Shown here: positions 9,481 through 55,857 of the stretch, in pieces
Layout: each line of letters starts with the position of its first letter
How positions within the stretch are numbered: the first letter of the stretch is position 1
Assembly: GCA_963575745.1 (NCBI GenBank)
Contig: CAUYUJ010000325.1
Span: forward strand, 372,001 to 436,000
Direction: 5' to 3'
DNA from: Prorocentrum cordatum
Taxonomy: Eukaryota
DNA length: 64,000 nt
Notes under the pieces: generated by a model
Database searches by the model: none
Seen by the model: the letters and a program-made list of their open reading frames with translations, nothing else
Told to the model about the DNA's origin: nothing
Translations under genes and position numbers: made by a program

Positions 9481-9546
9481 CCGCCGAGGCGGGCCGCTTC
9501 GGCACCGCCGCCCTCCTGCAGCCTAAGCCTGGCGCCACTGGCGTGG

Positions 9547-10850: not shown

Positions 10851-10853
10851 GGC

Positions 10854-10875
10854 CTTGAGCCAAAATGGCTACGGA
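10854..10875 (-). other. Dinoflagellate spliced-leader copy, 22/22
   Basis: Reverse complement reads TCCGTAGCCATTTTGGCTCAAG. Confidence 0.97.
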
Positions 10876-15385: not shown

Positions 15386-16268
15386 GTTACAGTTAAAGAC
15401 GGGGCCTTCAAGGCAAGTGGTGGCCGGAAACGCAGAGAGGGCCAGACGGGGCCCGCGCCCCGAAAGAAGCTGGGCCCAGAGACACGCCCTCCCAAGAGGG
15501 GCCACCTAGGGCCGCCTCTCGACACGGGCCAGGGAAGGCGGACGGCAAAGCCACTGGCTCTGGTCCCCAACCCGCCCAAGCCAATCATGCAAGCACTGCG
15601 AGAACAGAAGCAACGCATGATCACAACCCAAACTCGACTGCATTGCAAATACACCACGTGCAAATTCGAAGGCAGGAGACATACCCCGCTGAACAACCAC
15701 AGCCCCCCACCCCCAATGGGGAACAGACGTGCAAGGCGAACCATCACTCAGAAGGCATTCCGAACACGCAGGGAAAAGACGTCTCACAAGGAGCACCAAC
15801 CACGCTGCTCCAACCACTCCTCGATTCCAAGCCTGGAGGCAGCGGCGCCCCGCCTGCAGTACCTCCAACGCTCGCTCCTTCATCCGAGGGCGCCTGCACC
15901 GTCGCGGAATCAGCTGCGAGCCAAGCACGGGCGACGGCCGCTCTCGCACGCCACCAATCACGAGCCGCGACCTCGCCTCGAGCCCTGGCGCCGCCGCCCC
16001 CACGGAAGAGGACCTGCGGGAAGGCGTCGAGGTACGTGGCGGCGGCGGCAGCAACGCGTCCAGCAGGTTTCGGCAGCTGGCTGCTCCCCAACCGAGCAAG
16101 AGGTGGCCACGTCGGCCTCGCCGTCGAGGATCACGCCGTCGGAGTCGGAGCACTCGCCAGCAGCGCGCGGCGGCGCCGCCAGAGCGCCCGCGGCCTGCAC
16201 GAAGTCCACCTCGCAGTTAACCTCCGACACCCCAGGGAAGAGAGGGGGAGAGAGGGGAAGGCATGTGT
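15386..16268 (-). mobile_element. 5'-truncated copy B3 of the B1 element
   Basis: Highly similar to 11320-12183, with the same 3' motif and a TTTAAC/TGTAAC tail. A perfect 24-bp TSD GTCCGTGCGTGGTGGTCCGCAACA lies at 15362-15385 and 16269-16292. Confidence 0.88.
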
Positions 16269-16486
16269 GTCCGTGCGTGGTGGTCCGCAACACTGCTGTG
16301 TTATGCCGTGTTCTGTCGTGCACCTGTGTGTTTTGCCATGCTCCTGTGTGTGCTGCCGTGCTCCTGCGCATTATGCAGCGTTTCTGCTCTGCCGTGCTCC
16401 TATGAGTTATGCCGGGATCCTGCGTGTTCTGCCGTGTTCCTATGTGCTATGTGTGTTCAGCCGTGCTTATCGTGATCCTGCGCGTT

Positions 16487-18795
16487 TGTTTAAAGTTTAA
16501 AGTTTAAAGACGGGGCCTTGAGGGCGTAAGCTATGCACCAAATTACGCGCAGGGCCAGACGGGACGGAGTTCCCGAGAGACGCCGAGCCCCAGAGAGCAC
16601 AGAGGGCAGCGCGAGTCTACTCACCAACAGGCGCGAGCCTCACTGCTAACTCTCACTCACCCACGGACAGCGGCCGCACTGCGCCCGACGGCGGCGCCCC
16701 CCGAGGCTCCCGAGTGTCCCGAGCGGCCCCGCGCCGCGCTGGCCACAGGCCCAGCCTTGTGGATCAGGTCCAACTCCGCGCCCGCGGCACGGGGGCGGCC
16801 CTGCCCGCGCGCACTGCGCATGGCCCCAGGAGCTTGCACTCGGCCCTCATGCGCTCCTCGTCCCGCGAAGGCGGCGCTCATGCTGAGGTTCCTGGCCTGC
16901 AGGGTCTTACAGAAAGTCCAGCCCTGCGTCTCCCAATGCCCTCCAGGCTGTCGCGCGCCGCGGAGCCTCGAAGCGCGGGCGGCGGCCTGGGCAGCACTGA
17001 GGGGGAGGTCGCAGAACGCGGAGGAGGCGACCCACTTCCAGCCCAGCGCCCCTTGCTGGGAGGTGAACGACTCGGTGGCCAGGCCCACGAAGCGGGGGAT
17101 ACGCGGCCTATGGTAGAGCACGTGTAGACCTCGAGGAACCCGCAGGTCTACGCCATGCCCGACTCCGCACCGCCACAGGAAGCCGCGACGCAGGCTCTCG
17201 TAGAACCTGGCGGCGTCCAGGCAGAGGCAGACGGAGGCACCTCCCCGCTCGCGCGCAGGCGCGGCGCATGCGCAGTGCAACCAGCCTGCCTTCTCGTGCT
17301 CGCCGTCCACCTTGCCCCCAATGGAGAGGCGGTCGTGCTCCGCCCCTCCCAGCGCGCCGATGGGCTGCCTCGGGCGGCCCCAGATGCGCATGAGCAGCGG
17401 GGCGTTTACGATCGGTCGGACTCCTACATCCGACACGGGAAAGAAGGTCAGCATGGCAGCACGGGCGCCCAGGGGCTGCGGCTGCGCCTCCTGCGCCACC
17501 GGGGGGCCCAGGACGCCCTTCAGCGAGCAGGTCCGCCGCCCCAAGTCTGATGCAATATACACTGCGGCCTCGATCCTCCGAAGCTTGAGGTCGCTCGGGA
17601 CCTGCCGAGCAACCGTCGCTGCCCGCATGGCGCAGCGAACCGAAGGCACGACGCTGCCTGCGCGAACCAGCGGGCCCTCCATGCCCGAGGGCGCGAACAG
17701 GCAGGGGAAGAACGTGCACCACCTGCGGCGCGCAGCTCCTCTGGCCTCCTCTGGGCGGCTCGGGGCGACGCCGGCCTCCTGACGCCGCGCCTGGCTGGGC
17801 TTGGCTCCGCGCCGACAGACGGAGGCCTCAGTGGCCGCTAGGCTCCACCTCCTGGCGTCGCTGTACAACTCCAGCACCTCCTGCCCGCGGAGGCAGCCCT
17901 GAGGCGCCGCAGGGGCCTGGCCTGGTGCCGGTAGGGGCGGCTCGCCCCCGAGGACGTGGAGCCGCTTGCTGCCGCAGCAGGCCACCTCGGCGCTGCCGCG
18001 CGCGCACAGGCGTGGTTCCGCCGCACTGGCCCCGCTAGGCGCTCGTCCGCCCTGGCTGTGCTCCTCCATCGCTGCCTCCAGCTGCGTGGCCAGCAGGGCG
18101 AGCAGCCAGAGGGGCCAGGGCTGCAGCCTCAGCAACCAGCTCCCGCTTGCATGCCTGAGACACCTGCGGCGCCGAGCGCGCTGCCATGCCGCTCCGCTTG
18201 GCCTCGTTCCACGGCGGGCTGCGGCTGCCAGGGCCCACTGCTGCCTGCGAGCTCGCCGTCGTCGCTGCTGATCTCGCCCGCGGAGCAGGACTCCGCCCAC
18301 GGCGCTCGTTTGGGGGCCGAGGGGGGCCCTGCAAGCTGCGCCCGCACCGCCTCGATCTGGGCGCGAATGGCCGCCCATGCCACCTCGAAATTGCTGGAGC
18401 CCCAGGCCTCTGGCAGCTTGTCCAGCTGCGTGAGGAGCCCTGGCACATGGCTGGAACCCACTCGGCCGCGCGCTGACGCTGCCGCGCCTCTGCCTCCTCA
18501 CGGGCCGCTTCTTCGAGAACCTGGAGCGCTCTGCTGGCTCCCTCCACCTCGCCGTCGAGCGCCGCGAGCTCCCCCTGGGCCTTCTGGAGCTGCACCTCCG
18601 CCAGGTCCCGCGCCGCCTGCTTCTGCTCAAGGGCTTGGCGGGCTGAGCGGAGCCGCTTCTCCGCCTTGCTGATGGCGTTCGCCTCGCAAGACAGGAGTGA
18701 ACTGGCCCAAAGCTCGGAGACCCTCGCGGTCACGGCGCCGCGGACGAATCGCGGTCGTCGGGTTCTCCATGGCCTTGAGCCAAAATGGCTACGGA
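16487..18795 (-). mobile_element. Internally deleted LINE A2 (A1 family), SL-capped
   Basis: Perfect SL at 18774-18795 followed by GCCATGGA, as in A1. Has the ORF1 coiled-coil homologue and RT motifs GVRPIVNAPLLMRIWGR and LCLDAARFYESL. Tail is (TTTAAAC)n. A 14-bp TSD TGATCCTGCG(C/T)GTT lies at 16473-16486 and 18798-18811. Confidence 0.85.
18774..18795 (-). other. Dinoflagellate spliced-leader copy, 22/22
   Basis: Reverse complement reads TCCGTAGCCATTTTGGCTCAAG. Confidence 0.97.
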
Positions 18796-18797
18796 TT

Positions 18798-19385
18798 TGA
18801 TCCTGCGTGTTCTGCTGTGCTCCTGCGTGTTCTGCCGTGCTCCTGCATGTTCTGCCATCAAATATGCCGTGCACCTGTGTGTTCGGCCGTGCTCTTGTGT
18901 GTGCTGCCGTGCTCCTGTGTGTTCTGCCGCGCTCCCCCTTGTTCTGCCGTGCCCCTATGTGTTTTGTGTGTTCTGCCGTGCTCCGGTATATTCTGCCATG
19001 CTCCTGCGTGTTCTGCCGCGCTCCCCCTTATTCTGCAGTGCTCCGCCGTGCTCCTCCTGCTCCTGTGTTCTGCCGTGCTGCTGTGTGCTCTGCCGTGCTC
19101 CTGTGCGTTCTGCGTGTTCTGCCGTGCTCTGGCATGTTATTCCGTGTTCTCTGTGTGTTCTGCCGTGTTTCAATGCATGCTGTGCGTTCTGCCTTGCTCC
19201 TCGTGCTTCTGTGTGTTCTGTCGCGCTCCTGCGCAGTCTGCCGCGTTCGCGCGTGTTCTGCCGTGTACCTGCGAGTTCCCGTGTGTTGTGCCGTGCTCCT
19301 GTGTGTTCTGCCGTGCTCCTGTGTGTTCTGCCGTGCTCCCGCGCGTTCTGCCGTGTTCCTGCGTGTTGGTATGCCGTGCTCCTGC
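18798..19385. repeat. TGTGTTCTGCCGTGCTCC satellite; uninterrupted paralogue of the block split by B1
   Basis: Matches about 11120-11313 joined to 12935-13190. Confidence 0.85.
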
Positions 19386-24600: not shown

Positions 24601-25005
24601 CGCCCCCCCAGACCAGATCACGGCACCAACCACAACAACAAGAACGACGACGACGACAACGACAACAAAAACAACAACATCAACGCAACACGCAGAACTC
24701 GCACCACCAATCCCCCATTCATCCATGCACCCAGAGACAATGAATGACCGTTCGGGCCCCTCACTCTGACGCTCCCCTCCGGGCCCAGAACCAGCGTCCA
24801 TCGCGCGAACCTTCGAGTCTAAGCGCGCTTCCCGTCATCCGCGACGCCCCGCTGGAGGGGCGATCCCGCCGCCGCCCCCCCCCCCCCCCCCCCGCGGGCC
24901 CCGTCACCTGATCAATGCCCCCCCCCTCCGGGCCGATAAGCAACCATCATCGCGCGACCCCATCGAGTCTAGGGGTGCATTTTCCTGAAGACGCAATCCC
25001 TCTCT

Positions 25006-26651
25006 AAGAGGTCTCGCGAGCTCCCGCGTAGCCAGGCACAGGACCGACTAGCGCGCGCGCGTCCGCAGACGCCGCGTGCGAGGCCACCGCCCACTCGTGG
25101 AAAACCCGCGCGAAAGAACGCGGCGCTCTGGCCGAGCGCCGACGGCAGGCCGTGGATTCAAACGGCGCAACGCGCAGCGTGCAGGATCAGCATAGCACAG
25201 CGTCGCAGGAGCCGCCATTGACAGAAGATGCGGAGTCGGCAAAGCTCGACGTGGGGCGCGGAGAGGCGGCAGACAGCCAGGTCGACCACCTGCCCGCGGC
25301 TGCGGGCCGAGCCAAACTCAAAGTCACCGAGCAGCGGGCCTAGGAACTGAGACAGAGAAGACGAGAACAGGCGTTGGGAAAACAAAAAAAAAAAAGAAAA
25401 ACACAAACTGAAACAAATGATGGTCGGTGCATCACCTGGCGCGGCTGGGGCGCGGGACGTTGCGGGTCGCCGTGGCCCGCGGGGTCAACTGTCCGCTCGC
25501 GCGTGCCCTGAGATCCCTGAACTGCGAGCAGTGCTCCGCCATGGCCCAGCGCAGGTTGACCGAATTGAAGCCGCGTCACCGAGACGAGTAAGTGTCCCAT
25601 ATGCGCCGCATTGCGAACGAGATCCGCGCCTTCCGATGCAGCGTAGACTTCGCTCGCGAAACGGCCCGGAAATCCACGTCGTCGAGGAAGCGCTGAGCGC
25701 GCGCCGACAGGCGCCGTTTAGCAGGTGCAATCGCAGCGGGAACAAGTGTAGATGGCATCTGCAAGCAAAGGCATCGAGCCAAACGCCCGCGCTGGAGCAC
25801 CACCGCGGCGAGTACACTGCCCCACGTGGCAGAAAACATTAGACGCCGACCCGCGCGCCAGAACCCATCCATTCGTCTGTGTCACGCCGTGAGATGGATC
25901 CACTGAGCTTAGCTGTACCACGACGCCCTGGTCATCAGAAAAAAAAAGGCCCTGACCCATGGCCGCCCCCTGGCGGCCAGGGGCCGGCTGGCGCGGTGAT
26001 AGCTCCTCATGCTGCGCGCTGGCTCGCTCCCGTCATGAGCGGCGCCCGACGGCGCGGAGCTCCGCGGCGGTCGCGCCGCCACCGAACGCTCGGCCCTCCA
26101 GCGCTGCGCATTTCGGCCAGCGATGGCGATCAGAAGAGAAGCGAAACACAAGATGCCCCGCCGTCCACTGAGAATCATGCTGCGCGGGGGGGCACCCCGC
26201 TGACACAGGAAAAATGCACAATCGCTCGAGCCAGGGCCTTCTCAGCGCGCTTCTTTTGAAAGCGCAGCCCCACTCCAAGAGGTCTCGCGAGCTCCCGCAT
26301 AGCCAGTCACAGGACCGACTAGCGCGCGTGCGCGTCCGCAGACGGCACGCGCGAGGCAGCCGCCCACTGGCGGGAAGCCCGCGCGACAGAACACGGCCCT
26401 CTGGCCGAGCGCTGGCGGCGGGCCGCGGATTCAAACGGCGCAACGCGCAGCGTGCAGGATCAGCACAGCGCAGTGCCACAAGAGCCGCCCCCACCAGCAG
26501 ATGCAACATCGGCAACGCTCGACGTGAGACGCGGAGAGGCGGCAGACAGCCAGGTCGACCACCTGCCCGCGGCTGCAGGCCGAGCCAAACTAAAGTCACC
26601 AAGCAGCGGGCCAGGGAATTGAAACAGTAAAGACCAGCGCAGGCGCTGGAA

Positions 26652-26694
<43 letters not shown>

Positions 26695-27520
26695 ATGATG
26701 GTCGGTGCATCACTTGGCACGGCTGGGGCGCGGGAATTTGCGGGTCGCCGTAGCCCGCGGAGTCAACTGCCCGCTCACGCGCACCCTGAGATCACTGAAC
26801 TGTGAGCCGTAGTCCGCCGCGAGACAGCGCAGGCTGACCGAATTGAAGCCGCGCCACGGAGACGAGTGCTCCATACTTGCCACCTTGTGAACGCGATGCG
26901 TGTCTTCCGATACAGTATAGACTTCGCTCGTGAAGTGGTCTAAAGCTCCACGTCGTCGAGGAAGCACTTAGTGCGCGCCGACAGGCGCCGCTTCGCAGGT
27001 ACAATCACAGCGGGAACAAGCGCAGATGGCATCTGAAAGGCCTCGAGCCAAACGTCCGTACTGGGGCACCGCCGTGGTGAGCACAGTCCCACGTGGCCAG
27101 AAACATTGAACACCGACCCGCGCGCCAGAACCCATCCATTCGTTTGTGTCACACCGTAAGATGGACCCACTGAGCTTAGCTTTGCCACGACGTCCTGGAC
27201 TTCCGAAAAAAAGGCCCTGACCCATGGCCACCCCCTGGCGGCCAAGGGCCGGCTGGCGCGGTGATAGCTCCTCATGCTGTGCACTGGCACGCTCCCGTCA
27301 TGAGTGACATCCGACGAAACGGAGCTCCACGGCGGTCGTGCCGCCACCGAACGCGTGGCCCTCCAGCGTTGGGCATTTCGGCTAGCGATGGCGATCAGAA
27401 GAGAAGCGAAACACAAGATGTCCCGCCGTCGACTGATAATCATGCTGCGCGGCGGGATTGCGACCCCGCTGACACGAGGAAAAACGCTACAATCGCTTGA
27501 GCCAGGTCCTTCTAAGCGCG
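25006..27520 (-). repeat. Two diverged tandem copies of a ~1.27-kb unit, possibly a LINE RT relic
   Basis: AAGAGGTCTCGCGAGCTCCCGC starts both copies (25006, 26277) and they are colinear throughout. Translations VTQTNGWV and (C/R)FLDDV resemble RT motifs. Confidence 0.8.
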
Positions 27521-28568
27521 CTTCCCGTCATCCGCCACGTCCCGGTGGAGGAGCGATCCCGCCAACACTCCTCCACTGGACCCCTCCACTTGATAAATAT
27601 GTTTCCCTCCGGGCCCATAGCCCTATAGCCCCATGGCCCTGAAACAAATATGATTGGGTGTTTTCCGGTATTATGTATTAGATATGCTGCAGACACAGCC
27701 ACAACGTTCAGCTCGCTTCTCGTACCTCGAAGACGCTTCCCGTCATCCGCCAGGTTCGAAGGTACCCCGAACCCTTCCCCCTCAGACTCCCCCCAGTTGA
27801 TTTTGCCTCCAGGTCTAAACATGCGTTCATCGCGCGACTCTTCGAGTCTGAGCGCGCTTCCCGAGGATGTCCCTAGCGAACACGCTGTTTTCGGCATGAG
27901 CGGCAGTAAAACACCTCCGTCGACAACTCCTTGTTGTGAGGATGTCTCAAGCGAAACGCAAAATGCACAGATGAATTAATTTCGCGGCGATCAGCTTTTT
28001 GAGGGCATCTCTGGCAAACCGCTTGTTTTTGTTAAACGCGATGTCGCGGAGATGTCATTCTTGTATGAAAGTCCCAAGCGAAATCGCCAATCGTGGGGAT
28101 CCGCTAACCCTATCTCCCGTGTAGCCAGCCACCCACTATTAGAAAGAGATTTTCAGATATGTTGCATATTCAACCACAACGTCCAGCTCGCTTCTAGTAC
28201 CTCGAAGACGCTTCCCGTCATCCGCCGACCCTGTCGGCGTGTGTGAGGGCCTTTTCCGTTCGAGCCGGGCTTTTCCGTTGGAGTCGTCGTCTCCGTCCTC
28301 CTCCGTTCCATTTGCCTGGGCCCTCTTCCTCACACGCGCCGTCCTGAGCAAAATTCAACAACATCGGAGTGTGATCAAAGGGAAACCCCTTCCCTTTGAT
28401 CCCTTCCCCGCGCCAGGGGGGAGGGGAGTCCTGGTGGGTCCTGGAGGGGTCCTGGCGGGTCCCAGGAGGTGTCGCCACCCAGATACGTTTTCCCCCCGCG
28501 CCCCGGCCCAGCCCCGGCCCCGGCCCCGGCCCCGGCCCCGGCCCCCCCTCCGGCCCCGGCCCAGCCCA

Positions 28569-30012
28569 AAACGGTTGTTCCCTCTATTCGGGTTTCAAGA
28601 CAATCGGGTTTTGGTATGCGATGGTCTCGTTCGCACCGCTCATGAGGCGGAGGAGGATAACGAGGACCATGATACGAATGATCACATATCGGCATTGATG
28701 TATAGTGATCAATGAAGTACACGCACACTTCTTGTCTTCCTGACATAGAGAACCATGCACGCATCCATACGTAAATCACAAAAACTGGTGCCAACTTTCA
28801 TATGTTTCAAATCCTTGCATATTCCCCAAACCGTGCTTGCACGAAGGAGTTCTCACTTCGTGTTCGAACGAATTCGCCCCGTCAGCCGGCGTCGCCAGGC
28901 GGAGGGAACAAGAGAGGGGCCGTCCGCTCCCTCGCCCCCGCTAGGGGGAGGGCTGTCCACCCCCTCGCCGACGCTAAGCGGATCGACGCGGGGGCCAGGG
29001 CGAACGAGGGGGGGATGAGGGAAGGAGGGAGGGAAGGGATGGGCGGGTGACAGGGAGGAATAAAAGGATGGAGGGAGGGGGCAGGGAGGGAGGGCGGGAA
29101 GGAGGGAGGGAGGGGAAGAGGGTTGTCGCTGCCGCCGCCCCCCCTCCCGGCGCTGCCGCCGCCGATGCCGTTGTCGCTACTGTTCCTGCTGTTTCTCCTG
29201 CTTCTGCTGCTCCTGCTGCTCTTGATGCTCCTACTGCTGCTCTTGCTGCTCCTGCTGCTGTTGCGTCTGCTCCTCCTCCTCGTCCGCCTCCCCAGGCCCC
29301 TCTCCTCCTTCTCCTCCTCCTCCTCCTCCTCCTCCTCCTCCTCCTCCTCCTCCTCCTCCTCCTCCCCTCCTCCCTTTTCTTCTCCTCCACTCCTCCTCCT
29401 TCCTCCTCCTCCTCCTCCTCCTCCTCCTCCTCTCTCTCTCCTCCTCCTCCTCACTTCCTCCTCCTCCCTCCTCCTCCTCCTCCTCCTCCTCCTCCTCCTC
29501 CTCCTCCTCCCCCTCCCTTCCCATCCTCCTCCTCCCCCTCCTCCTCCTCCCGGTCGGAAGGGTTGCGAGCGTCCAGGCACGCGAACGCCTGGAGCCGCAG
29601 CTCGTCAACATACCTGCCTCGTCACAGCGTGCGCACGCGGCACGCTCTCTCTCTTCCCCTGCCCCTCCGTTCCCTCCCCTCCCTCCCTCGCTCCCTTCCA
29701 TTTTCCCTCCCTCAGCCCCCTCCCCTCCATTCCCTCCCCCATACTTCCCTCTCCCATTCCCTGCCTGTTCCTCCTTGTCCCCCTCCTTCCCGTCGTCGTC
29801 TCCTCGTCGTCGTCGTCATTCTCGTCTTTGTCGTCGTCGTCGTACTCCTCCTCCTCCTCTCCTCCTCCTCCTCCTCCACCTCCTCCTCCCTCCTCCTCCT
29901 CCTCCTCTCATCGTCGTCTCTCGTCCGTCGTTCGCCGTCCTCCTCCTCCTCCTCCTCCTCCTCCTCCTCCCCCTCCTCCTCCTCCTCCATCATCATCATC
30001 AAAATCACATCA

Positions 30013-30085
<73 letters not shown>

Positions 30086-30151
30086 ACATCATCATCATCT
30101 TTATCATCCTCCATCCGCCTCCTCCCTCCTCATCCGCATCATCAGCATCAG

Positions 30152-30182
<31 letters not shown>

Positions 30183-30198
30183 GTCATCATCATCATCA

Positions 30199-30248
<50 letters not shown>

Positions 30249-30382
30249 TCATCAATCATCATAATCATCATCATCAGATCATTCATCATCGTCCATCATC
30301 ATCACCATCATCAGCATCACAGCATCATCGTCGTCACCCACCACCACCCACCACCACCACCACCACCATAATCATCATCAAT

Positions 30383-30417
<35 letters not shown>

Positions 30418-32338
30418 ATCATCATCATCAACAACATCGTCATCGGTCCATCGTCATCGTCATCATCGTCAATCACATCGTCATCATCGTCACATCTCAT
30501 CATCGTCATTATCTTTGTTTCGTCCTCGTCAGGCTCCTCCTCTTCCCCCCCATCCCCCTTCCCCTCCCCTCCTCCCCCTCCTCCTCCTCCTCCTCCTCCT
30601 CCTCCTCCTCCTCCTCCTCCTCCTCCTCTTCCTTTCTCACTGTTCCTGTTCTCTCCTCCTCCTCCTCCTCGTTCCTCCTCTTCCTCCTCCTGCTGCTCCC
30701 ACTCGTGCTCCCGCTCCTACTCGTGCTCCCCCTTCCCCCTCCTCCTGCTCGTGCTCCTGCTCGTGCTACTCGTGGTCCTGCTCGTGGTCCTGCTCGTGGT
30801 CCTGCTCCTGGTGCTGTCGTTGCTGCTCCCGCTCTTTCTCCTGCTCCACATCCGCCACCGTGCCGCGAGGCACGAATTGTAGTGTCCTCAGGTCCCTTGT
30901 AGTCCTCAGTCTTCAGTCCTAATGATTGAGTGTTCAGGGGCCCAGACCCCAGATTCTTAAATTTCCTGGGCCATCCCGTGGCTTTCCCTTTCCCAGGCCC
31001 CGGCAAGTGTTCCCTTTTTCGGAGTTGGGAGGGCCCCGCAACGAGTCCAGGGCCTCAAGAGGCCCCCAAGACGGCCCAAGAGGGCCCCGAGTCGCCGAAA
31101 CATCGCTCCAAGACGCCGAATATGGCCTCCAGACGGCCCAAGACGCCTACCGGAGGCCCCTAGAGGCCTCCGAGAGCAATCCCAAGAGGGTCCCAAGAGG
31201 CAAGATGCACAGATTTCCCATAATTTTGACAAATTTGGGAGTTCTCGCCCTTTCGGCTCCCCGACGCTCCAAAATCGCCCAAGAGGCCCACAAGAGGCCC
31301 CCAGAATAGCCAAAGAGACCCCTAAGAGAAGGCGCCAACACGGCCCAAGAGGCCCCCAAGACGGCCCCAAGAGGGGGAACCCCGAACGGGCATTTCGAGC
31401 CTTCCGCTCCGAGATGGCCCCAAGAGCTCCACGAGGCCGGTTGCCTCCTGTTGCCTCCTGGCCGCCACGTAAAGCCAGGCATGGAGGTTTCCGTAGAAGC
31501 CCGGCTATACCAAGTGCGTTTCACGAAGCCCTCCCCCCTTTTTCTCCATCCCGGTCGTCTCTAAGTGCCGATAAATAAAAAACTAACGCGTTTTTGGTTT
31601 TGTTGCTTCCTCCCCTCCTTTTTCCCCCCTTGGGGCATGCCCCCCAGGAGGCCCCAAGGGGCGCCCAAGAGGCCCCCAAGGAGGCCCCGGGAGACCCCCA
31701 CGGGGCCCCAAAGAGATCCCCACGAGCCCTCCCAGAGGCCCCGGGCCCCCGACCTACAACCCGGGCGCGGTGGCGGGGTGGGCCGAAGGCCACTAGATCA
31801 TCACCCCCCCTCCTGTCCGCCTCCCCGCCGCCGTTTCGTCTCAAGCTCTGCCCGTCGGGCCAGTTCCTCGGGCCGGGGCCATGGAGCCCCAGGCGCGCGC
31901 CGCCGCGACGCGCAGCGGCGGCGGCGCTCGCGGCGCAGCCGTTGCGCTGACGCAGGACGAGTTCCCGGTCGTGTTCGGCGCGTTGGCCCTGGTGGCCGGC
32001 ACGCCGCACGCCGTGGCGTTCGCCCTGGGCCTCATGCTCCTCGAGAGGGTGGACTTGATCTGCAACCTACGTCGCGACGACGTGCGCGACTCTCGAGCAG
32101 ACCCGGAGCGCGGCACAGTGGCGATTCGGTCGGTGAACAAGAAGACAGTCCCTCGGAACGGTTGGATGAGCGAGTGGGCGCAGCAGATCTTCCAGAAGGA
32201 CACTATGAGTATACCAGCCCGCAGCGTGGCGCGCGGGAAGGAGGGGAGGCAATCGCGGCTCCGAGCAGACCGCGCCGTCGTCCTGGGTCGCCCCCAAGAG
32301 GAGCGAGGGGCAATTCCAGGCGTGGGCGCCAGTGCGCG
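28569..32338 (+). repeat. Left arm of a large inverted repeat
   Basis: Reverse-complement match to 37017-40290, including unique segments such as ACGGTTGTTCCCTCTATTCGGGTTTCAAGAC and colinear (CCT)n and (CAT)n tracts. Confidence 0.92.
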
Positions 32339-33678
32339 AAGACGTGGCTGGCAAGCGAGGGCCAGAGATAGCGCTCGCGCCCAGGGGCGGGCTCGTGGGG
32401 ATCGCGCGGACGGAGGAGGGCTGGCACGGCGCGAAGGTCCGACCAGGCCCGCGCATCCTCGACGGCGCCACCGGGTGGGCCCCCGTGCCCATCAGCGCGA
32501 AGTTCCGCCGCGAGGAGCGCAAGAGCCGGAAGGACACGATCGCGAACGTCGGCAGCGTGCCGCTCTTCCCCGGCTGGGAGCCGCAGGACCCCCAGCTGGG
32601 CAAGCGGGTCGTCTCGCTGAAGCCGATGGACGTCCAAGCAGGCCGCTGGACAAGCGATAGGACCGACTTTGAGGTTTTGCTGTCGTCTGCCCGTCGGGGG
32701 GCAGGTGGGCGGGCGGGGGCGGGGGGGGGGGGGAGGGGCGGGCGCCGCGGCCCAGAGAGATAGGGCGCGCCCCCAGGACGCTGCCGTCGGGCCCTGATGG
32801 CGGAGCGGGCCCAAAGGCATGCCCCTCCGGCGGAGGCCGCCGGGGAGGGCCCGGCCGACGGGGGCCAGGACCAGCGCAACCTGTCGCGGATCTCGAGCCT
32901 CCTCAGCCAGCTGGACGGCGCGCCGCTGTCGAAGATTCGCACCCGCAGCATGCGATATGGGAGCCTCCGGCTGGCGCCGCGCGCGACTCCCCGCCCCTCG
33001 GGTGGCCCCGCGGCAGGGGCCTTGGCGGGCGGGCGGACACGGCGAAATCAGCCAGACGGTCGACAGCGGGGCGCCCCCCCCCCCCCCGAGGCACCCCTCG
33101 GGTGGCCCAGCGGCAGGATCCTGGCGGATCAGCCAGATGGTCGTCCGCGGGGCCGCCCCCCCCCCTCCCCGGCACCGCGTCGGGCGGCCCCGCGGCAGGG
33201 GCTTGGCGGACATTCTGGGATCAGCCAGATGGTCGACGGCGGCGCGGACATCGACCTTGCCGGCGCCGTCGCCGGGCATAGGGTGGGCCCCGAGGTGGCG
33301 CGGCGGATCTACAACCAGGCGACGCTGAGCCGCCAGAAGACCGCGACGCAGGCCTCCGCGGGCGCGCGCCTGGCGGCGCGCGGGCGCGCGGTGGACGCGC
33401 TCGGCGCGCCGGCCGCTGGGGGCGCCGCTGGGGGGCGCGCGGAGCCAGGGGGCGCCGCGGCAACCGCCTTGGCAGCTGTGGCGCCCGCCGCGGCCGGTCC
33501 GCGGGCCCTCGCAGGGGCGCGCCGCGAGGCCCCTGAGGGCGGCGCCGCGGCAGCGGCGGCCGACGTCGAGCAGGCCCTGGCGATGCTGCGCGCGGCGCGG
33601 GCCCTAGTCGGCACGGCGGCCTTCGAGGATGCCCTGGCGAGGCTCCGGCAGGGCGACCACCCGGGGGCAGCGGCGTAG
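31881..33678 (+). CDS. Tyrosine recombinase (phage-integrase-family catalytic domain), interrupted; possibly Crypton-like or pseudogenised
   Basis: Motifs in order: LTQDEF; LLERVDLICNLRRDDV (box I R, 32046); VAIRSVNKKTVPR (K); PLFP; IRTRSMR then HSGISQMVDGGADIDLAGAVAGHRVGPEVARRIY (GH 33274-33279, Y 33310). There is a +1 G near 32241 and a putative GC-AG intron at 32642-32776. Confidence 0.7.
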
Positions 33679-36129: not shown

Positions 36130-37015
36130 GCAGGGGGGGGGGGGGAGAAGCAGATGGCGGGAGAGGATGAGGATGAGGAGGAGGAGGAAAGAGGGAGTAG
36201 GAGAGGACGGAATATGAGGATGGGAGGGACAGGGTAGGACGCGGAGGAGGAGGAGGAGGAGGAGGAAGACGAGGAGGGTGGGGGGACAACGAGCAGCAGC
36301 AGCAGAAGGTGGAGGAGGTAGATGGCGAGCAGCGGCAGGCCTAGCCGGCGCAGGAGCAGGACGACCAGGAGCAGGGGGAGCACGCAGCAGGGACGAGAAG
36401 GAGGAGGGGGAAACGGAGGGGAAGGAGGGAGGCGAGGGGAGAGGGGGATTATCCCACGCGGCAGAACAGGAGAATGATGATGGACGATGATGATGACGCT
36501 GATGGGACGATGAGGAGGAGGAGGAGGAGGAGGAGGAGGGAGGAGGAGGCAGGAGGAGGAGGGGAAGGAAGATGGTGAAGGCCGTTGCTGTACCGCCGCC
36601 GTCGCCGCACTGCCTCGGCGGATTGTCCTTACCCCTCGGTTCCTTGTTCCCACCCCAGGGTCCAGCTCAAGGACGGTGTGCGCGCTCCGTCTTCCCCCCC
36701 ATCGTCAGTTCGTCCGTCGCCTCTCGTCATCCGCCAGCCTCCTCTCGCCCCCCGCCGCCCCCCTCCCCCTGTCCCTCCTACCCGCGCTGTCCACGCCTCC
36801 TCCTCCTCCTCTCTCCTCCCTCACTCCTCCCCCCCCCGCTCCAACTCTCCTCCAACTCCTCCAGGTCTTTCCCTCCCTCCCCTCCTGTTCCTCCTCCCCT
36901 CACTGCAACTACCCTCCGCCTCCCCACCTCCATCCAAATCATCAGCACTCCTCCTCCTCCTCCTCCTCCTCCTCCTCCTCCTCCTCCTCCTCCTCCTCAT
37001 ATCTCTCCTCCTCCT
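34440..37015. repeat. Low-complexity (GGA)n/(CCT)n purine-pyrimidine tracts
   Basis: Direct reading. Confidence 0.85.
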
Positions 37016-37016
37016 C

Positions 37017-37472
37017 GCGCACTGGCGCCCACGCCTGGAAATGCCCCTCGCTCCTCTTGGGGACGACCCAGGACGACGGCACGGTCTGCTCGGAGCCGCG
37101 ATTGCCCCCCCTCTTCCCGCACGCCACGCTGCGGGCTGGTAGACTCATAGTGTCCTTCTGGAAGATCTGCTGCACCCACTCGCTCATCCAACCGTTCCGA
37201 GGGACTGTCTTCTTGTTCACCGACCGACTCGCCACTGTGCCGTATTCCGGGTCTGCTCGAGAGTCGTGCACGTCGTCGCGACGTAGGTTGCAGATCAAGT
37301 CCACCCTCTCGAGGAGCATGAGGCCCAGGGCGAACGCCGCGGCGTGCGGCATGCCGGCCACCAGGGCCAACGCGCCGAACACGACCGGGAACTCGTCCTG
37401 CGTCAGCGCAACGGCTGCGCCGCGAGCGCCGCCGCCGCTGCGCGTCGCGGCGGTGCGCGCATGGGGTTCCAT
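37017..37472 (-). pseudogene. Truncated 5' portion of the tyrosine recombinase gene
   Basis: MEPHAR...LLERVDLICNLRRDDV...NKKTVPR...FQAWAPVRE, then runs into (GAG)n. It lacks the +1 frameshift of the left copy. Confidence 0.7.
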
Positions 37473-38794
37473 GGCCCCGGCCCGAGGAACTGGCCCGACG
37501 GGCAGACCTTGAGACGAAACGGCGGCGGGGAGGCGGACATGAGGGGGAGTGATTTATCTAGTGGCCTTCGGCCCACCCCGCCACCGCGCCCGGGTTGTAG
37601 GTCGGGGGCCCGGGGCCTCTGGGAGGGCTCGTGGGGATCTCTTGGGGGCCCCGTGTGAGTCTCCCGGGGCCTCCTTGGGGGCCTCTTGGGCGCCCCTGGG
37701 GGCCTCCTGGGGGGCATGCCCCAAGGGGGAAAAAGGGAGGGGAGGAAGCAACAAAACCAAACAATGCGTAGCTTCTCCTATTTATCGGCACTTAGAGACG
37801 ACCGGGATGGAGAAAAAGGAGGGAGGGCTTCGTGGAACGCACTTGGTATAGCCGGGCTTCTACGGAAACCTCCATGCCTGGCTTTACGTGGCGGCCAGGA
37901 GGCAACAGGAGGCAACCGGCCTCGTGGGGCTCTTGGGGCCATCTCGGAGCGGAACGCTCGAAATGCCCGTTCGGGGTTCCCCCTCTTGGGGCCGTCTTGG
38001 GGGCCTCTTGGGCCGTGTTGGCGCCTTCTCTTAGGGGTCTCTTGGGCTAATTATTCTGGGGGCCTCTTGGGGGCCTCTTGGGCGATTTTGGGGCGTCGGG
38101 GAGCCGAAAGGGCGAGAACTCCCAAATCTGTCAAAACTAGTGAAATCTGCGAATCTTGCCTCTTGGGACCCTCTTGGGATTGCTCTCGGAGGCCTCTAGG
38201 GGCGTCTGGGAGGCGTCTTGGGCCGTCTGGAGGCCATATTCGGCGTCTTGGAACGATGTTTCGGCGACTCGGGGCCCTCTTGGGCCGTCTTGGGGGCTTC
38301 TTGAGGCCCTGGACTCGTTGCGGGGCCCTCCCAACTCCGAAAAAGGGAACACTTGCCGGGGCCTGGGAAAGGGAAAGCCACGGGATGGCCCAAGAAATTT
38401 AAGAATCTGGGGCCCGGGCCCCTGAACACTCCATCATTAGGACTGACTGAGGACTACAAGGGACCTGAGGACACTACAACTCGTGCCTCGCGGCACGGTG
38501 GCGGATGTGGAGCAGGAGAAAGAGCGGGAGCAGCAGCAACAGCAACAGGAGCAACACCAGGAGCAGGACCACGAGCAGGACCACGAGTAGCACGAGCAGG
38601 GGCACGAGAGGAGGAACGAGGAGGAGGAGAAAGAGGAGAGAACAGGAACAGTGAGAAAGGAAGAGGAGGAGGAGGAGGAGGAGGAGGAGGAGGAGGAGGA
38701 GGGGGAGGAGGGGGAGGGGAAGGGGGAGGGGAGGGGGAGGAGGAAGAGCATGACGAGGAGAAACAAAGACAATGACGATGATGACGATGATGAT

Positions 38795-41775: not shown

Positions 41776-42687
41776 GACTGGTGCTGTGCTGCTGCGCTGT
41801 CTCTTGCCCGTATCGAATCGCATCGAAATGGGCCCAAATGGACCCTGGCCGGAGGCGGAAGCGAGGGAAGGGCATCGGCACCGGCAAGCTCTTCCTCCCC
41901 CCGAGCGCGCGGGGCCGAGGCCGAGGCCAGCGGGGGCGCACACCGCGCGGCGGAAGACGCGCTGGGAGCGCTCGAGCAGCACCTGGAAAGGGCGCTGGCT
42001 GCGCACCGACACCGGCCCTTCGAGAAACAACAGATGGCATGCGGCGGGTTCGTATCGTGGCGACTTGCGCTGTGGTTTCAATGCGGGGATCGCTCAACCA
42101 TGAACGATCGATAATTTCCGAAACGTCGGGTCGTTCAACGATGGTCGGGGGCTGCCAGCGGCGTTCAACGTTGAACGCTGGGCCGCTGGGCGGCGGGGTC
42201 GCCGCTGGTCGGCACGGCGCGGACCTGCCGTAAACATGAACATTCGTGGGTCCGCTCGGGCTTCTTGGATCGGCGACGGAGCCCCTGGCGCGCTCCGCGC
42301 GCCAGGGATGGGGGTCCATCGCCGATGCAGGAAATTGTGTGGAACTCCGGATGATCTTGTTTGTCTATTTCCTGCTCCCCGAATGTGGACACAAGTCTCC
42401 GACGGCATGTTTTTTCAATCTGGGCGTCTTTCCTTTCATGTCGGCCTCTGGGGCCGTCATCGGGCGTCGAAACCAGTGGATCTGGGATGCCAAACTGTCC
42501 CCAGGGAATGGGTCGAGAGGTCTCTGGAGCCTCGGATCCAATTATCCCGGCAAAGCAACCTAACAGCGATGTGTATAAGCATATCTGGAAGCATTCCCCT
42601 TAAGATTCAGGTGAGAATCCAGTTGTAGAATTCTTCGGTTCTCGCAGTCGCAGTCGCATTCGCAATGACAGTCGCAGTGGCAACGGC

Positions 42688-42965
42688 CTTAGGATCCAAT
42701 GAAATCCTAAGGATTCCTCGGGATTCCTAAGGCATCCTTAGGCATCCTTAGGAATCCATTTAGGAAACCTTAGGAATCCTTAGGAATCCTGATTCCCAGG
42801 GATTCCTACGGATTCCTAAGGATTCCTGAGGAATCCCAAGGATTCCTAAGGATTCCTGAGGATTCCTGAGGATGCTTAACTATGCCTACGGATTCCTAAG
42901 GATGCCTACGGATTCCTAAGGATTCCTAGGGATTCCTAAGGATTCCTATGGATTCCTACGGATGC
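42688..42965. repeat. 10-bp GGATTCCTAA repeat with an internal inverted block
   Basis: GGATTCCTAA units flank reverse-complement TTAGGAATCC units at about 42735-42790. Confidence 0.85.
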
Positions 42966-43830
42966 CTCAGCCTGCCTCAGTTTCAGCCTCAGCCTCAGCC
43001 TGCCTCGGCTTGCCTCAGCCTCAGCCTCAGCCTGCCTCGGCCTCAGCCTCAGCCTGCCTCAGCCTCAGCCTCAGCCTGCCTCGGCCTCAGCCTGCGTCAG
43101 CCTCAGCCTCAGCCTGCCTCAGCTCAGCCTCAGCCTCAGCCTCAGCCTCAGCCTCAGCCTCAGCCTGCCTCGGCTTGCCTCAGCCTCAGCCTCAGCCTGC
43201 CTCGGCCTCAGCCTGCCTCGGCCTCAGCCTGCCTCAGCCTCCCCTCCTCCCCCCCCCTTCCCCCCCCCATTCAGCCTCACCTTGTCTCAGCTTCGGCCTG
43301 CCTCGGCCTCATCCTCAGCCTCAGCCTCAGTCTCAGCCTCAGCCTGTCTCGGCCTGAGCCTGCCTCGGCCTCGGCCTCAGCCTGCCTCAGCCTCAGCCTC
43401 AGCCTGTCTCAGCCTCAGCCTGCCTCAGCCTCAGCCTCAGCCTCAGCCTGCCTCGGCTTGCCTCGGCCTGCCTCAGCCTGCCTCAGCCTCAGCCTCAGCC
43501 TCAGCCTCAGCCTGCCTCAGCCTCAGCCTGCCTCAGCCTCAGCCTGCTTCAGCCTCAGCCTGCCTCAGCCTCAGCTCAGCCCTCAGCCTCAGCCTCTCAG
43601 CCTCAGCCTGCATCAGCCTCAGCCTCAGCCTCCTCAGCCTCAGCCTCAGCCTGCTCAGCCTCATCAGCCTGCCCCAGCCTCAGCCTCAGCCTCAGCCTCA
43701 GCCTCAGCCTGCCTCAGCCTGCCTCAGCCTCAGCCTCAGCCTGCCTCGCCTCAGCCTGCCTCGGCGTGCCTCAGCCTCAGCCTCAGCCTGCCTCGGCCTC
43801 AGCCTGCCTCGGCCTCAGCCTGCCTCAGCT
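42965..43830. repeat. (CCTCAG)n / CCTCAGCCTG satellite
   Basis: Direct reading. Confidence 0.95.
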
Positions 43831-46879: not shown

Positions 46880-48490
46880 CTAGAAGGCCCCCAAACTGGC
46901 CAAGAGGGCCCCAGAGGCCCCCAAGACGCTCCAGGGGGACCCCGAGTCGCCGAAAGATCGCGCCAAGACGTCCTGGATGGCCGGGAGACGGCCCGAGAAG
47001 TCTCCGTGCCTCCCCAAGAGGCCCCCAAGAGGTCTCCAAAGAGGGCCCCAAGAAGCAGAAATCGTCCCTTTCCCTTCGGGTAAACGCTCATGTTTAGCAG
47101 ACTCGCATCTTGAGCTTTCACAACAACCAAGACGACCCAAGACGCCCCAAAGATCTGTCCGAAACGGCCCAAGAGGTCCCGAAGAACGCTCCCTAACAAT
47201 CCAAAAATGCCCAGAGACGGCCCAAGAGGCCCGTCTTGACGAGCCCAAGAGAGGGCCCGGAGAGGGGTCAAACGAAATTTCAAGCCTTCGGCCCAAGGAG
47301 GCCCCCAAAGACTCTCAAGAGGCCTCCAAAATGCCCCAAGAGGCCCTGGGGAGGCCCCCGGGCCCAGCACGAGCCCAAAGCTCCCTCCAAGGCGCCCCCG
47401 AGAGGCCTCCAAGATTTCTCCAAGAGGCCCCCGAAGAAGTCCCAAAACTGCCTCCAAGATAAGATGCCTCCAAAACGCTTTCTTCTGAACGTAATTGTTG
47501 CAAACAAGAATGTGTTCCTTGATTCTACATCTTCAACCGTCTCGAGGCGTGAGGCGATTGAACACGCTCTCACAGGCCCCCCTCGTCCCTATGGGGTGCG
47601 CGAGCGCACAGCAGCTACGCGACCGACTGCTTCTTCTTAGCGTGACTTCGGGCGAGAGCTCTGGCACAATGAAAGCACCCCAAAATTCTCCTGCCGCTAC
47701 GACCCACGAGAACGCGGTAATGAATTCGCCGGCCCAACGGGCCAGAGGCGTGCGAAGATCTCTGGAAACTGCTGAATAATACTTCCTACTTCGCGCACGC
47801 GGGGCGGCCCCTGGGCGTCCCCGGACGAACAGTACCCCGGGCGATCCCCGGCAGGGTTGGGTCAGAGATGCTTTTCCTCCTGGGCGCCGCCCCCGTGGCC
47901 CTCCAGAGAGCCCCAAGAAGGGCCACGAGGCCGCCAAGAGCCCTCCAAGATGGTTCAAGAGTGCTCCGAGATGCCACACGATCGTTCCAAGACGCCAAGA
48001 TGGCCCCCAGACGCCCCAAGAGGCCTCCAAGAGCACTCCCCAGATTGCCCCAAGAGGCAGAATTCATTACTTTTCCTTAGGTTGGCCTGATTTTGGCGTG
48101 TCCATCTTTTCGGCTTCCCGACGCCCCAAGACGGCCCAAGAGGCCCCCAAGATCGCCCCAAGAGTGCCCAAGAAGGTCCCAAGAAGGCCCCAAGATGGCC
48201 CAAGAGGGCTCCAAGACGGCCCCAGAGGCATCCAAGACGGCCCAAGAGGGGGCTCAGAGGGGCCCCAGAGGGCCCCAAGCGATGCCCCAAAGGGGGAACA
48301 CAAAACAAACTTCGAGCCCTCGGCCTTAAGAAGCCCCCAGGAGGCCTCAAGAGGCCCCTGAGAGGCCCCCAAAGCCCCCAAGAGGCCCTCAGGAGGCCCC
48401 CAATCGACGCTGACGAGAACCCCCAGCGGCCCCAAGAGGCTCAGTCATGCGAAATGGGCCGGCGGAATGAGCGAAGCGATTCAATAACTT
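46880..48490. repeat. CCCCAAGA/CCAAGACGG-rich dispersed repeats (about 46880-47470 and 47900-48490)
   Basis: Repeats of the same composition occur at about 31050-31800, 37550-38310 (inverted) and 52190-53060. Confidence 0.7.
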
Positions 48491-49451: not shown

Positions 49452-50121
49452 CACCCCTCACGCAGATCCGCGGGGTCAGGGTCCAAAAACACAGGGGATT
49501 TGCAACATTTCTGAAATTCGGTGCCACCCCTCACGCAGATCCGCGGGGTCAGGGTCCAAAAACACATGGGATTTGCCACATTTCTGAAATTCGGTGCCAC
49601 CCCTCACGCAGATCCGCGGGGTCAGGGTCCAAAAACACATGGGATTTGCCACATTTCTGAAATTCGGTGCCACCCCTCACGCAGATCCGCGGGGTCAGGG
49701 TCCAAAAACACAGGGGATTTGCCACATTTCTGAAATTCGGTGCCACCCCTCACGCAGATCCGCGGGGTCAGGGTCCAAAAACACATGGGATTTGCCACAT
49801 TTCTGAAATTCGGTGCCACCCCTCACGCAGATCCGCGGGGTCAGGGTCCAAAAACACAGGGGATTTGCCACATTTCTGAAATTCGGTGCCACCCCTCACG
49901 CAGATCCGCGGGGTCAGGGTCCAAAAACACATGGGATTTGCCACATTTCTGAAATTCGGTGCCACCCCTCACGCAGATCCGCGGGGTCAGGGTCCAAAAA
50001 CACAGGGGATTTGCCACATTTCTGAAATTCGGTGCCACCCCTCACGCAGATCCGCGGGGTCAGGGTCCAAAAACACAGGGATTTGGCACATTTCTGAAAT
50101 TCGGTGCCACCCTTCACGCAC
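49452..50121. repeat. Near-perfect 73-bp minisatellite, 9 full copies plus a partial
   Basis: CACCCCTCACGCAGATCCGCGGGGTCAGGGTCCAAAAACACA(G/T)GGGATTTGCCACATTTCTGAAATTCGGTGC at 49452, 49525 ... 50036. No spacers. Confidence 0.97.
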
Positions 50122-50439
50122 ATCCATCGCAAGGCGTGGTAACCCAAACTGCGAGAACTCCCTCGGCCCTTTAATCGCAAGGTGTGGTAACCAAGCCCGT
50201 AAACCATACACGTCTTACCAATCGCCAGGTGTGGTAACCCCTCTTGTGATCAGTTGGTTTTGCTGATTGCGAATCGGCTTCGCATGAAGTTTCGATACTG
50301 CTTCACGACAGCGCCAAGGCCTCATGACTTAGCTCTTCCATGGCCCATTCTCCGAGAGAGGGGGCCGGCGGCAGGGGGCGAAGCCCTTACGGATTATCCC
50401 AGTGCGACCCTACCTAGGAGTTGGAGAATCTAGGAAAGC

Positions 50440-51258: not shown

Positions 51259-53159
51259 AGCGGGGGATCCTGGGGGAACCGCGGGGCGGATGCCGGGGGA
51301 ACCGCCCGGGGCGAGGAGCACTGCCCGCCCCTGTAAGCTTATACAGTAAGAACCCTTCTAGGCAGAGCCCAGGTAGGGAAATACACTTAACCGAAATAGG
51401 CCGGATTCAGCTTGGGGCTCCCGTTCGAGCCAGCACCCCCCCAACAACGCACACCCAGACCCCCCAGAATTCCACCCCGAGAACTCTGGGGGTCACATCG
51501 GTATGGGTATGGGTGCTAATTGTCAGCTCGTGACTCGTGATGATCACCCTTGGCACTGCCCGTCCGGCTCCGCCAACGCGAGCCGCGCGGCTGACTTACA
51601 GTTGTCGGAAATGCACCCCGAACGATGCGAACAAATATGGCGCAAATTCACGCCTCCGAAATCCGCCACCGTGCCACTGCAGCACGATGTAGATTGTCAC
51701 CAGTTCCTTTGCTCAAACCTCTGAGCCTCAATTCTCAATACTGAACATTCTTCAGCGGCCCAGACCTACTGCTCTCAAACATTGCTTGGTCCAATCAGCA
51801 GGGCACCGCTCCGCGAATTGGCCTCAAATCATGCGTCCAGAGCGTGGTTGGCCCCAGTTAGCGGAGCGCCGCTCCGCTAGAGGCGGCGCTCTGCAAATTG
51901 GCCAACAAGCTAAGATTTCCCATAGCCTCGCCCCGATTAGCGGAGCGAGCTCCGCCAATGTGCTGAGACTCTCCAATCTCCAAATCAGCTCACAATCCCA
52001 CGACATCCCAACCCACAACCCAGGCCCAGTGGGGGATAGGCCGAAGGCCATTAAATCCGCCGACCCCTGTTGGTATACTCGTCTTGGTTTGGATTCTTGT
52101 TTCCCACAAAACTCCCCCCTGGGGATTCGGCCCAGCCCCCAGCCACCCGGAAGGCTTGCCCACAGGTGGCTGCAAGCGGCTATTCCGCTCCAGATGGCTC
52201 AAAGAAGGCCCAAGATGGCCTCCAAGATGGCTAAGATGGCCTTCAAGATCGCCCTAGATGGTCCAAGATGGCCTCCGCGACGGCCCAAGAACGTTGAAGA
52301 TGCCTCAACGATTGCCCAAGAATCCTCCAAAAGGGCCCAATATGGCCTCAAGATGACGGCAGGCGGCTCAAGGCCCGAAGAGGCCAACATCAGTGATTTT
52401 CAGTAGGTTTGTAGAGGATTTCGGCAGTTGCTTCATTTAGGCCTTCCGACGGCCCGAGACGGCCCAAGAGGCCCCAAAACGGCCTCAAGAGGGCTCCAAG
52501 ATGGCACAAGTGGCCCCCACGACGCCCAAAATGGCCTCCAAGACGGCCCTGCAAGAGGGCCCCAAATCGGCCAAGAGATACCCCCAAGACGGCTTCCAGC
52601 GGCGTGAGACGGGCCAGGAATACCATCAGACGGCCAAAAGGGCCCCCGAGAAGCCCCAAAATGCCCCCAAGAGGCCCAAGGAGGCCCCCAAGATGCCTCC
52701 ATGAGGCTCCCACGAAGCTGTCAGGAGGCCCCAAGGGCGCCCCCGGAGGCTCCCAAGACGCCCCCTCCTCCTCCTCCTCCTTTTCCTCCTCCTCCTTTTC
52801 CTCCCTCTCCTTCTCCTCCTCCTCCTTCTCCTCGTCCTCCTCCTCCTCCTCCTCCTCCTCCTCCTCCTCCTCCTCCTCCTCCTCCTGAGTTGCCCCGCCA
52901 TCCTCCCCCAAAAGTTCCCCGAAGGGTTTCCACAACGGCAGGGGGAACACATGGTCAGATAGTTTGGCAGAACTCTTGCCACAACGCTCGGCCACATGGG
53001 CGACTCCAAAAGGCAGGGGAGGGCGGTGATTCGCCGTAGGCGTCATCGATCCGCCGCCCCCCGTTGATTTATCACCAGGCGGCCCAGCGCGCTGAATGTC
53101 TTATGGTTTCTCCCCACCCGACAAGTTGAGGTCGTTAGATTTTAAAAGCTGACCTCCCA

Positions 53160-55786: not shown

Positions 55787-55857
<71 letters not shown>

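Follow-up and report, generated by a model that had tools for sequence, protein, structure and literature searches.

A stretch of 64,000 nucleotides of Prorocentrum cordatum DNA (contig CAUYUJ010000325.1 of assembly GCA_963575745.1, positions 372,001 to 436,000; hereafter the window) raises the question of whether a gene for a tyrosine recombinase (YR) lies hidden near its middle and, if so, whether that gene is still alive, how its protein is built, and what kind of element or host gene it came from. YRs cut one DNA strand through a 3′-phosphotyrosine, and the strands are exchanged by way of a Holliday junction before being rejoined. They nearly always clamp DNA with both a core-binding and a catalytic domain (as described in PMC8138268), and eukaryotic YRs are reported to be encoded by mobile elements, with domesticated DUF3504 genes losing their catalytic residues (Kojima and Jurka, PMC3212892).

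An initial annotation, made from the letters and a list of open reading frames (ORFs), proposed such a gene, split over three ORFs and belonging either to a Crypton-like DNA element or to a stand-alone recombinase. Here, we describe this gene (copy A), a partial second copy in inverted orientation (copy B), and a family of related proteins of which one – P0007 – is intact. The copy A locus is a real but dead gene copy, in which a known enzyme class takes on a new architecture.

The recombinase gene and its relatives

When copy B was searched with full HMMER against 1.84 billion representatives, six proteins came back at E<=0.001, and a profile search added a seventh, P0007 (491 aa, E 4e-52), the one full-length member of a family of seven proteins in all; word-indexed homologue searches with single gene pieces gave no matches. 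Two of the seven are labelled Amphidinium carterae (P0005 and P0006), four are environmental (P0002-P0004 and P0007), and P0001 is labelled Pyramimonas sp. CCMP1952. P0007 is intronless and aligns along the whole gene, and its longest contig is 2,923 nt.

The catalytic motifs of a YR stand in order on the + strand of copy A – R at 32046-48, K at 32142-44, RSMR at 32944-55, GH at 33274-79, and Y at 33310-12 – and share alignment columns with R109, K141, H368, R371, H394, and Y405 of P0007, which keeps all six catalytic positions. Copy A retains five of the six, with Arg at the box II His (H368 of P0007), and in the family rows covering the sites the R and the K are each present in 7/7. The motif order and the matched columns of an intact relative bear out the hidden YR that the initial annotation had postulated. 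In the LF patch region, 34 of 51 residues are identical to P0007 over its positions 280-335, a stretch that extends into exon 2. The coordinates of the features are collected in Table 1.

The gene was hidden because none of its pieces matches the recombinase families of Pfam or PHROGs. The search against the phage-integrase family PF00589 that had been suggested as a check accordingly gives nothing with the window's own pieces, and succeeds through the relative P0007, which matches PF00589 at E 2.2e-4 (21.5 bits, short of the cut-off of 27.1), phrog_216 at E 7.1e-7, the phrog_1 integrase at E 1e-4, and a Ruminococcus plasmid integrase at an hhalign probability of 81%. In the ESM Atlas, the copy-B equivalent of the N-terminal part has the YR clan in 10/10 of its best family matches, with clusters at 0.94, the top cluster being eukaryotic and carrying DUF3504 on 11% of its members. 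In profile alignments, box I, the Lys, and the box II-to-Tyr region fall in order along a small profile built from FimB, FimE, XerC, XerD, and seven integrases of phages or plasmids, at low probability. NCBIfam gave no YR match for P0007 or P0002, and searches of PDB sequences with P0007 and with two alignments turned up neither a YR nor an SH3 match; the AlphaFold2 model of P0007 has a mean pLDDT of 40, and fold searches with it are uninformative either way. Judged by its sequence, the gene belongs to the tyrosine recombinase superfamily (the PF00589 clan).

Table 1. Features of the copy A locus and its partial duplicate, in window coordinates
Feature	Position	Strand	Basis or remark
Inverted duplication, left arm: 3.3 kb microsatellite-/repeat-rich flank and 5′ part of gene	28570..32342	+	Partner 40290-37012
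Copy A YR gene	ATG 31881, stop ends 33678	+	Motif order and alignment to P0007
Exon 1, first frame: short N-terminal tail, start of catalytic domain, box I Arg and catalytic Lys	31881..32239	+	
Family-specific insertion in catalytic domain, ~110-125 residues (P0007 163-279)	32208..32538	+	Bounds estimated from alignment blocks
+1 frameshift, one extra G	32240..32241	+	Absent from copy B; frame switch against P0002 and P0007
Probable SH3-type beta-barrel within insertion	32290..32508	+	Best-matching stretch about 32350-32490
End of exon 1, LF patch region	32539..32641	+	Best-conserved part of protein
Presumed intron 1, GC-AG, 135 nt, G-rich, in-frame TAG	32642..32776	+	~40-residue gap in P0007
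Exon 2: helices and box II, RSMR (HSMR in P0007)	32777..32969	+	
Presumed intron 2, GC-AG, 255 nt, in frame	32970..33224	+	Gap of exactly 85 residues in P0007 just after RSMR
Exon 3: GH, catalytic Tyr, Ala-rich linker, conserved C-terminal helical pair	33225..33678	+	
Copy B: 5′ third of same gene	37012..37472	-	In frame across +1 site; abrupt end in (GAG)n tract

Introns, frameshift and decay

The coding part of copy A falls into four segments, all stop-free and each with a GC3 of 0.86-0.90, and is broken by a frameshift and by two interruptions that are multiples of three and have GC-AG ends. Against P0007, the gene model with both interruptions removed scores 779, compared with 662 for neither, 697 for intron 1 only, and 744 for intron 2 only, and yields a 468-residue protein in which 180 of 405 aligned residues are identical to P0007. 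From this alignment, we infer that both introns would be spliced. In Symbiodiniaceae, 25-74% of boundaries are reported to have GC or GA donors (PMC11453091).

A single GC-AG intron, at the place of intron 1, had been proposed at the outset. The interruption is matched by the gap in P0007, but homology does not set its ends uniquely, as three other frame-preserving donor/acceptor pairs lie within 1 score point of the favoured junction (AG/GC...CAG/G), and the second intron was overlooked, so that the protein of the initial annotation carries 85 foreign residues inside box II. For intron 2, the GC-AG pair 32970-33224 is best, scoring 779 against 772 for the runner-up; an alternative register placed by MAFFT, with the gap directly after RSMR, matches residues slightly better but shows no GT/GC/GA-AG ends by eye and was rejected. 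A tandem repeat of 81-82-nt units (33047-33210) lies inside intron 2, its units carrying the 3′ junction and the start of the next exon; two further copies of the intron's 3′ splice junction and of the exon start lie within it, and a more degenerate one stands at its 5′ edge. The intron may have arisen or grown through tandem duplication, or the stretch may alternatively be an unspliced tandem-duplication insertion.

The extra G that had been postulated near 32241 is borne out at the sequence level: copy B has one base fewer at 32240/41, carries the first 154 codons of the gene in a single frame, and has a mean column identity of 95% to copy A over the alignment, and in tblastn searches P0002 and P0007 match frame 3 before 32240/41 and frame 1 after it. 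Public contigs from run X1 are identical to 31649-31793 and 31900-32141, none of them spanning the extra G or either intron, and the matches in runs X2 and X3 are repeats only; formally, the base could still come from misassembly of a short run of G.

Copy B lies in an inverted duplication which, together with microsatellites, accounts for the only long inverted repeats found. The block upstream of the ATG that is common to both arms consists of microsatellites and a CCCAAGA-rich repeat with a terminal motif that is seen again at 52007, and from this composition and recurrence the duplication looks segmental rather than transpositional. The CCCAAGA-rich repeat itself is interspersed (30926-31800, 37550-38440, 46900-48250, and about 52000-52570), has thousands of short public contigs matching it, and carries a 52-nt terminal motif found again at 52007-52057. 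Its upstream member ends ~80 nt before the YR start, and was considered as an element end and rejected, there being no matching arm downstream of the gene.

Of the 18 changes that separate the two copies, 14 are non-synonymous and 4 synonymous, a pN/pS of 1.16 that has little power on so few changes (binomial p = 1.0 against neutrality); 9 of 14 transitions are at CpG. At the 14 differing residues the relatives side with copy B at six (41, 69, 77, 100, 118, 137) and with copy A at five (45, 82, 111, 144, 154), which argues that both copies are decaying. With the copies diverging neutrally, copy A reads as a pseudogene, and on this comparison it is a dead relic that matters mainly as a pointer to its family. 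The suggestion that RSMR in place of HSMR may have inactivated this copy stands insofar as the one intact relative has His where copy A has Arg. However, because copy A also carries the frameshift and derived residues where the relatives match copy B, the H-to-R change was probably one of many post-mortem changes and not the cause of death. Nor would it prove inactivity by itself, since the box II His is described as less conserved in the IntBPP-1 subgroup and is replaced by Tyr in IntDes (PMC8138268).

One relative adds an observation of its own. P0001, from EukProt, matches the window at 31881-32348 and 37472-37000 and is near-identical to the window copies despite its green-alga label, which conflicts with the dinoflagellate-like GC-donor style of the gene. 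At seven diagnostic residues the first four are as in copy A and the last three as in copy B, and the protein looks as if the two copies had been merged or as if it came from a third copy formed by recombination; its label points either to a mislabelled or contaminated dataset, to a merged assembly, or to a recent transfer.

Domain architecture

In 6/6 relatives that cover the start, the first conserved motif is preceded by a Met at a distance of 13-25 residues, and in copy A an in-frame stop ends at 31796, 28 codons upstream of the ATG, with no Met between them. A Met so near the start of the catalytic domain, together with the upstream stop, indicates at the sequence level that the family is without an N-terminal core-binding domain, as in FimB. 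The proposal that the protein has only a catalytic domain is thus right about its beginning, almost at the N-terminus, but not about the rest, as a conserved insertion of ~120 residues and a C-terminal helical pair are also present. The insertion follows the catalytic Lys and precedes box II, has 42 of 109 residues identical to P0007, and also occurs in P0002. The helical pair (~33550-33645) follows a low-complexity linker and is identical to P0007 at 11 of 32 positions.

We consider it probable, on profile and sequence comparisons, that the insertion contains an SH3-type barrel. The top Atlas matches of its core are SH3b clusters at 0.91, with a recognition of 2017 that falls below the threshold of 2300, and a phmmer search of 177,635 PDB sequences at E<=10 returned two matches only, both to the SH3 region of ARHGEF16 (E 0.49 and 0.85); 1X6B is described as a classic SH3 domain (PMC5906684). 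Compared with 10 bacterial SH3 domains by hhalign, the insertion aligns in the expected register at E 0.0074, its score of 19.3 exceeding that of every one of 60 column shuffles (maximum 15.9). Other results weigh against a barrel: the hhalign probability for SH3 is only 5%, and 0.3% with a narrow YgiM profile; Pfam has no SH3 match for P0007 or the window pieces; hmmsearch with the narrow YgiM and broader SH3 profiles scores no better than shuffles; and the P0007 insert finds no SH3 domain in the PDB. A tblastn search of plasmids and phages with the insert gave no supporting match, and a second AlphaFold2 model, for the insertion, is uninformative (pLDDT 38, no structural match).

If this architecture is true, a family without a core-binding domain and with a domain-sized, probably SH3-type insertion would widen the range of YR architectures, and would represent a new way of building a site-specific recombinase, possibly one targeted by a protein or chromatin mark. 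Dinoflagellate nuclei are largely without nucleosomes. Speculatively, the barrel could replace the core-binding domain as a second DNA contact, or could read a chromatin peptide to choose targets, and the C-terminal helical pair could hold the synaptic oligomer. That the family represents a dinoflagellate lineage of YR-only mobile elements which lost the core-binding domain and uses the barrel in its catalytic domain as a DNA- or chromatin-binding module is a tentative proposal, and one we regard as doubtful. YRs serve as tools of genome engineering, and with P0007 there is an intact relative in which the architecture can be tested directly.

Origin of the gene and comparison with known systems

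The absence of an adjacent reverse transcriptase (RT), noted at the outset, holds in the ORFs scanned. Of 160 complex ORFs of >=70 aa at 20-46 kb, 146 were searched (the rest being the four YR ORFs, covered by separate scans, and 10 short ORFs), and among them there was no match to the families of RT, RNase H, gag, transposases, or viruses; the 12 kb around the YR gene showed no detectable RT. Among 80 further ORFs of the window there is one RVT_2 match at 54.8 kb, which is Copia-type and the nearest RT, and one RING finger at 62.7 kb. Both lie in a decayed Copia-type element on the - strand (54361-63200; RVT_2 54824-55456, RING finger 62696-63172), and are consistent with a Copia element separate from the YR gene. 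Rfam gave no match at 24-44 kb.

Elsewhere in the window, a 715-codon stop-free frame on the - strand (7057-9201) has no Pfam match, and by eye its end resembles the RNase H-like tail of LINE elements. There is a very young minisatellite at 49452-50125 (73-nt period, ~98% unit identity), a tandem duplication of ~1.27 kb at 84% identity (24988-27524), and a set of shuffled direct repeats in 9389-12177 and 15393-19167, where 11324-12177 equals 15393-16247 at 93% and 9389-10206 equals 17877-18685 at 76%. Other tandem arrays lie at 3001-3444 (~81-nt period), 42687-43829 (~91-nt period), and 59310-59507 (a perfect 99-nt doublet).

What, then, was copy A? We lean, by a little, towards a decayed copy of the only gene of a Crypton-like, RT-independent DNA element belonging to a small family in marine, dinoflagellate-like protists. 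The intact enzyme would cut, exchange, and rejoin strands by the established YR chemistry; presumably the recombinase cut out the element that encoded it, in circular form, and inserted it again at short microhomologies, along the lines proposed for Cryptons, whose model is excision and re-integration of their own RT-free element (PMC3212892). Copy A would have gained or kept two introns and been partly duplicated, inverted, with its flank, both copies then decaying.

Several results weigh against this Crypton-like origin. The family is rare, at seven proteins, and the loci of its relatives were not found in metagenome contigs, IMG/VR, GTDB genomes, or phages (a plasmid search gave one weak integrase match, E 0.5); the neutrality estimate has little power; and an RT split by many short introns could escape the ORF scan. 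As for mobility, the sole second copy in the window is the local inverted duplication, which includes the 3.3 kb microsatellite-rich flank, and no terminal direct repeats were assignable on inspection of the ends of the duplicated block. HMMER found no match in P0007 to the Crypton-specific Pfam families DUF3504/PF12012 (PF12012 at E<=10), NDC10_II, and GCR1_C, nor to GCR1_C in the window's C-terminal piece. The Crypton-like label of the initial annotation is therefore right in that a YR is present with no RT detected, and lacks a Crypton-specific Pfam match, element ends, or dispersed copies to go with it; on sequence grounds, membership fits the loose sense of a YR without RT, and is unproven in any stricter sense, the CryptonA and CryptonF domains not being matched.

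It is unlikely that copy A is instead a pseudogenised host recombinase, domesticated or horizontally acquired, that stood alone and served, for example, in resolving or inverting DNA circles or tandem arrays. The two spliceosomal-type introns, the GC3 of the four coding segments, the relatives in the distant dinoflagellate A. carterae, the conservation of the whole protein with insertion and tail included, and the failure to see dispersed copies or termini would all suit such a gene; however, the two local copies diverge neutrally, relatives are very few among billions of proteins where those of a conserved host gene should be more frequent, the intact relative has neither intron, and domesticated eukaryotic YRs are reported to lose catalytic residues (PMC3212892) that P0007 keeps. 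Descent from a larger element – intron-rich and DIRS/Ngaro-type, Polinton-like or another integrated virus, or cargo-carrying – of which copy A is the detached YR ORF is likewise quite unlikely. The nearest profile matches are phage and plasmid integrases, and the contig of P0007 is too short to exclude neighbours, but neither RT nor any viral family was seen among the flanking ORFs scanned and no relative among IMG/VR, phages, or GTDB genomes. DIRS and Ngaro YRs, moreover, usually have an N-terminal DNA-binding domain and a Trp before the catalytic Tyr, whereas this gene has no such domain and has His before the Tyr.

Very improbable, finally, is a working gene, in which the extra G would be an assembly error, both introns would be spliced, and the Arg at the box II His would be tolerated. 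Its stop-free segments, the GC-AG ends and triplet lengths of its interruptions, and the position of the extra base outside public contig cover are compatible with function, as are the weakly conserved box II His of the IntBPP-1 subgroup and the Tyr of IntDes (PMC8138268). Yet copy A has derived residues at family-conserved sites (e.g. 69, 77, 100, 118, 137), its pN/pS against copy B is about 1, and a public contig identical to it over 31900-32141, though possibly from the same sample, takes in three of the diagnostic sites.

Were the Crypton-like origin true, it would add such a lineage to the dinoflagellates. Our literature search turned up neither a Crypton from a dinoflagellate nor a YR with an SH3 domain within it, in a scope outside which lay Repbase, subscription papers, and supplements, where a deposited family could exist; Crypton introners are mentioned in text of PMC12130899 that draws no tie to dinoflagellates. 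Cryptons are not a single lineage (PMC13465315). With CryptonA, CryptonI, and the Glomhoppers, copy A shares the possession of one YR gene, with no RT detected nearby and no terminal inverted repeats seen, and the DUF3504 annotation in the top Atlas neighbour (11% of members) is a further lead towards CryptonA. Among CryptonA Glomhoppers, intact intronless copies are described beside intron-bearing or truncated ones (PMC13465315), and in this family too an intronless intact member coexists with intron-bearing or broken copies. In contrast to CryptonA, the family has no PF12012 match, has a C-terminal helical pair and a large internal insertion, and belongs to a host group outside those listed for CryptonA in the texts of PMC3212892 and PMC13465315; animal Cryptons are described as having no terminal repeats and no C-terminal domain (PMC3212892). 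CryptonF and CryptonS, reported from fungi, oomycetes, and a diatom (PMC3212892), are similar in being intron-capable and YR-only with an extra conserved C-terminal region. They differ in that P0007 is without GCR1_C or NDC10_II, that the C-terminal region of the family has just ~30 conserved residues, and that neither the 5-6-bp terminal direct repeats nor the TATGG termini given in PMC3212892 were assigned here.

DIRS and Ngaro YR retrotransposons use the same enzyme class (for which see PMC6681497), but no RT/RNase H, gag, or split direct repeats were detected at 20-46 kb and the family has no N-terminal DNA-binding domain. In architecture, the E. coli invertases FimB and FimE offer a likeness: their catalytic domain begins near the N-terminus (FimB has 200 aa, with the box I Arg at 47), and box I, Lys, box II, a GH-type motif, and Tyr align in order with P0007, at low hhalign probabilities (7%, 2%, 0.2%). 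FimB nevertheless has ~41 residues from the Lys region to the next aligned helix where P0007 has ~167, and P0007 has ~34 more residues before box II and a C-terminal extension, in a family that is eukaryotic and has introns. Functional insertions into the catalytic fold that shape the DNA substrate are known from IntTn916, IntBPP-1, and the integron IntI, which keep the core-binding domain that is missing here (PMC8138268); those of Tn916 and BPP-1 lie between strands 2 and 3 (PMC8138268), whereas the insertion in this family is domain-sized and follows the catalytic Lys and the helix after it.

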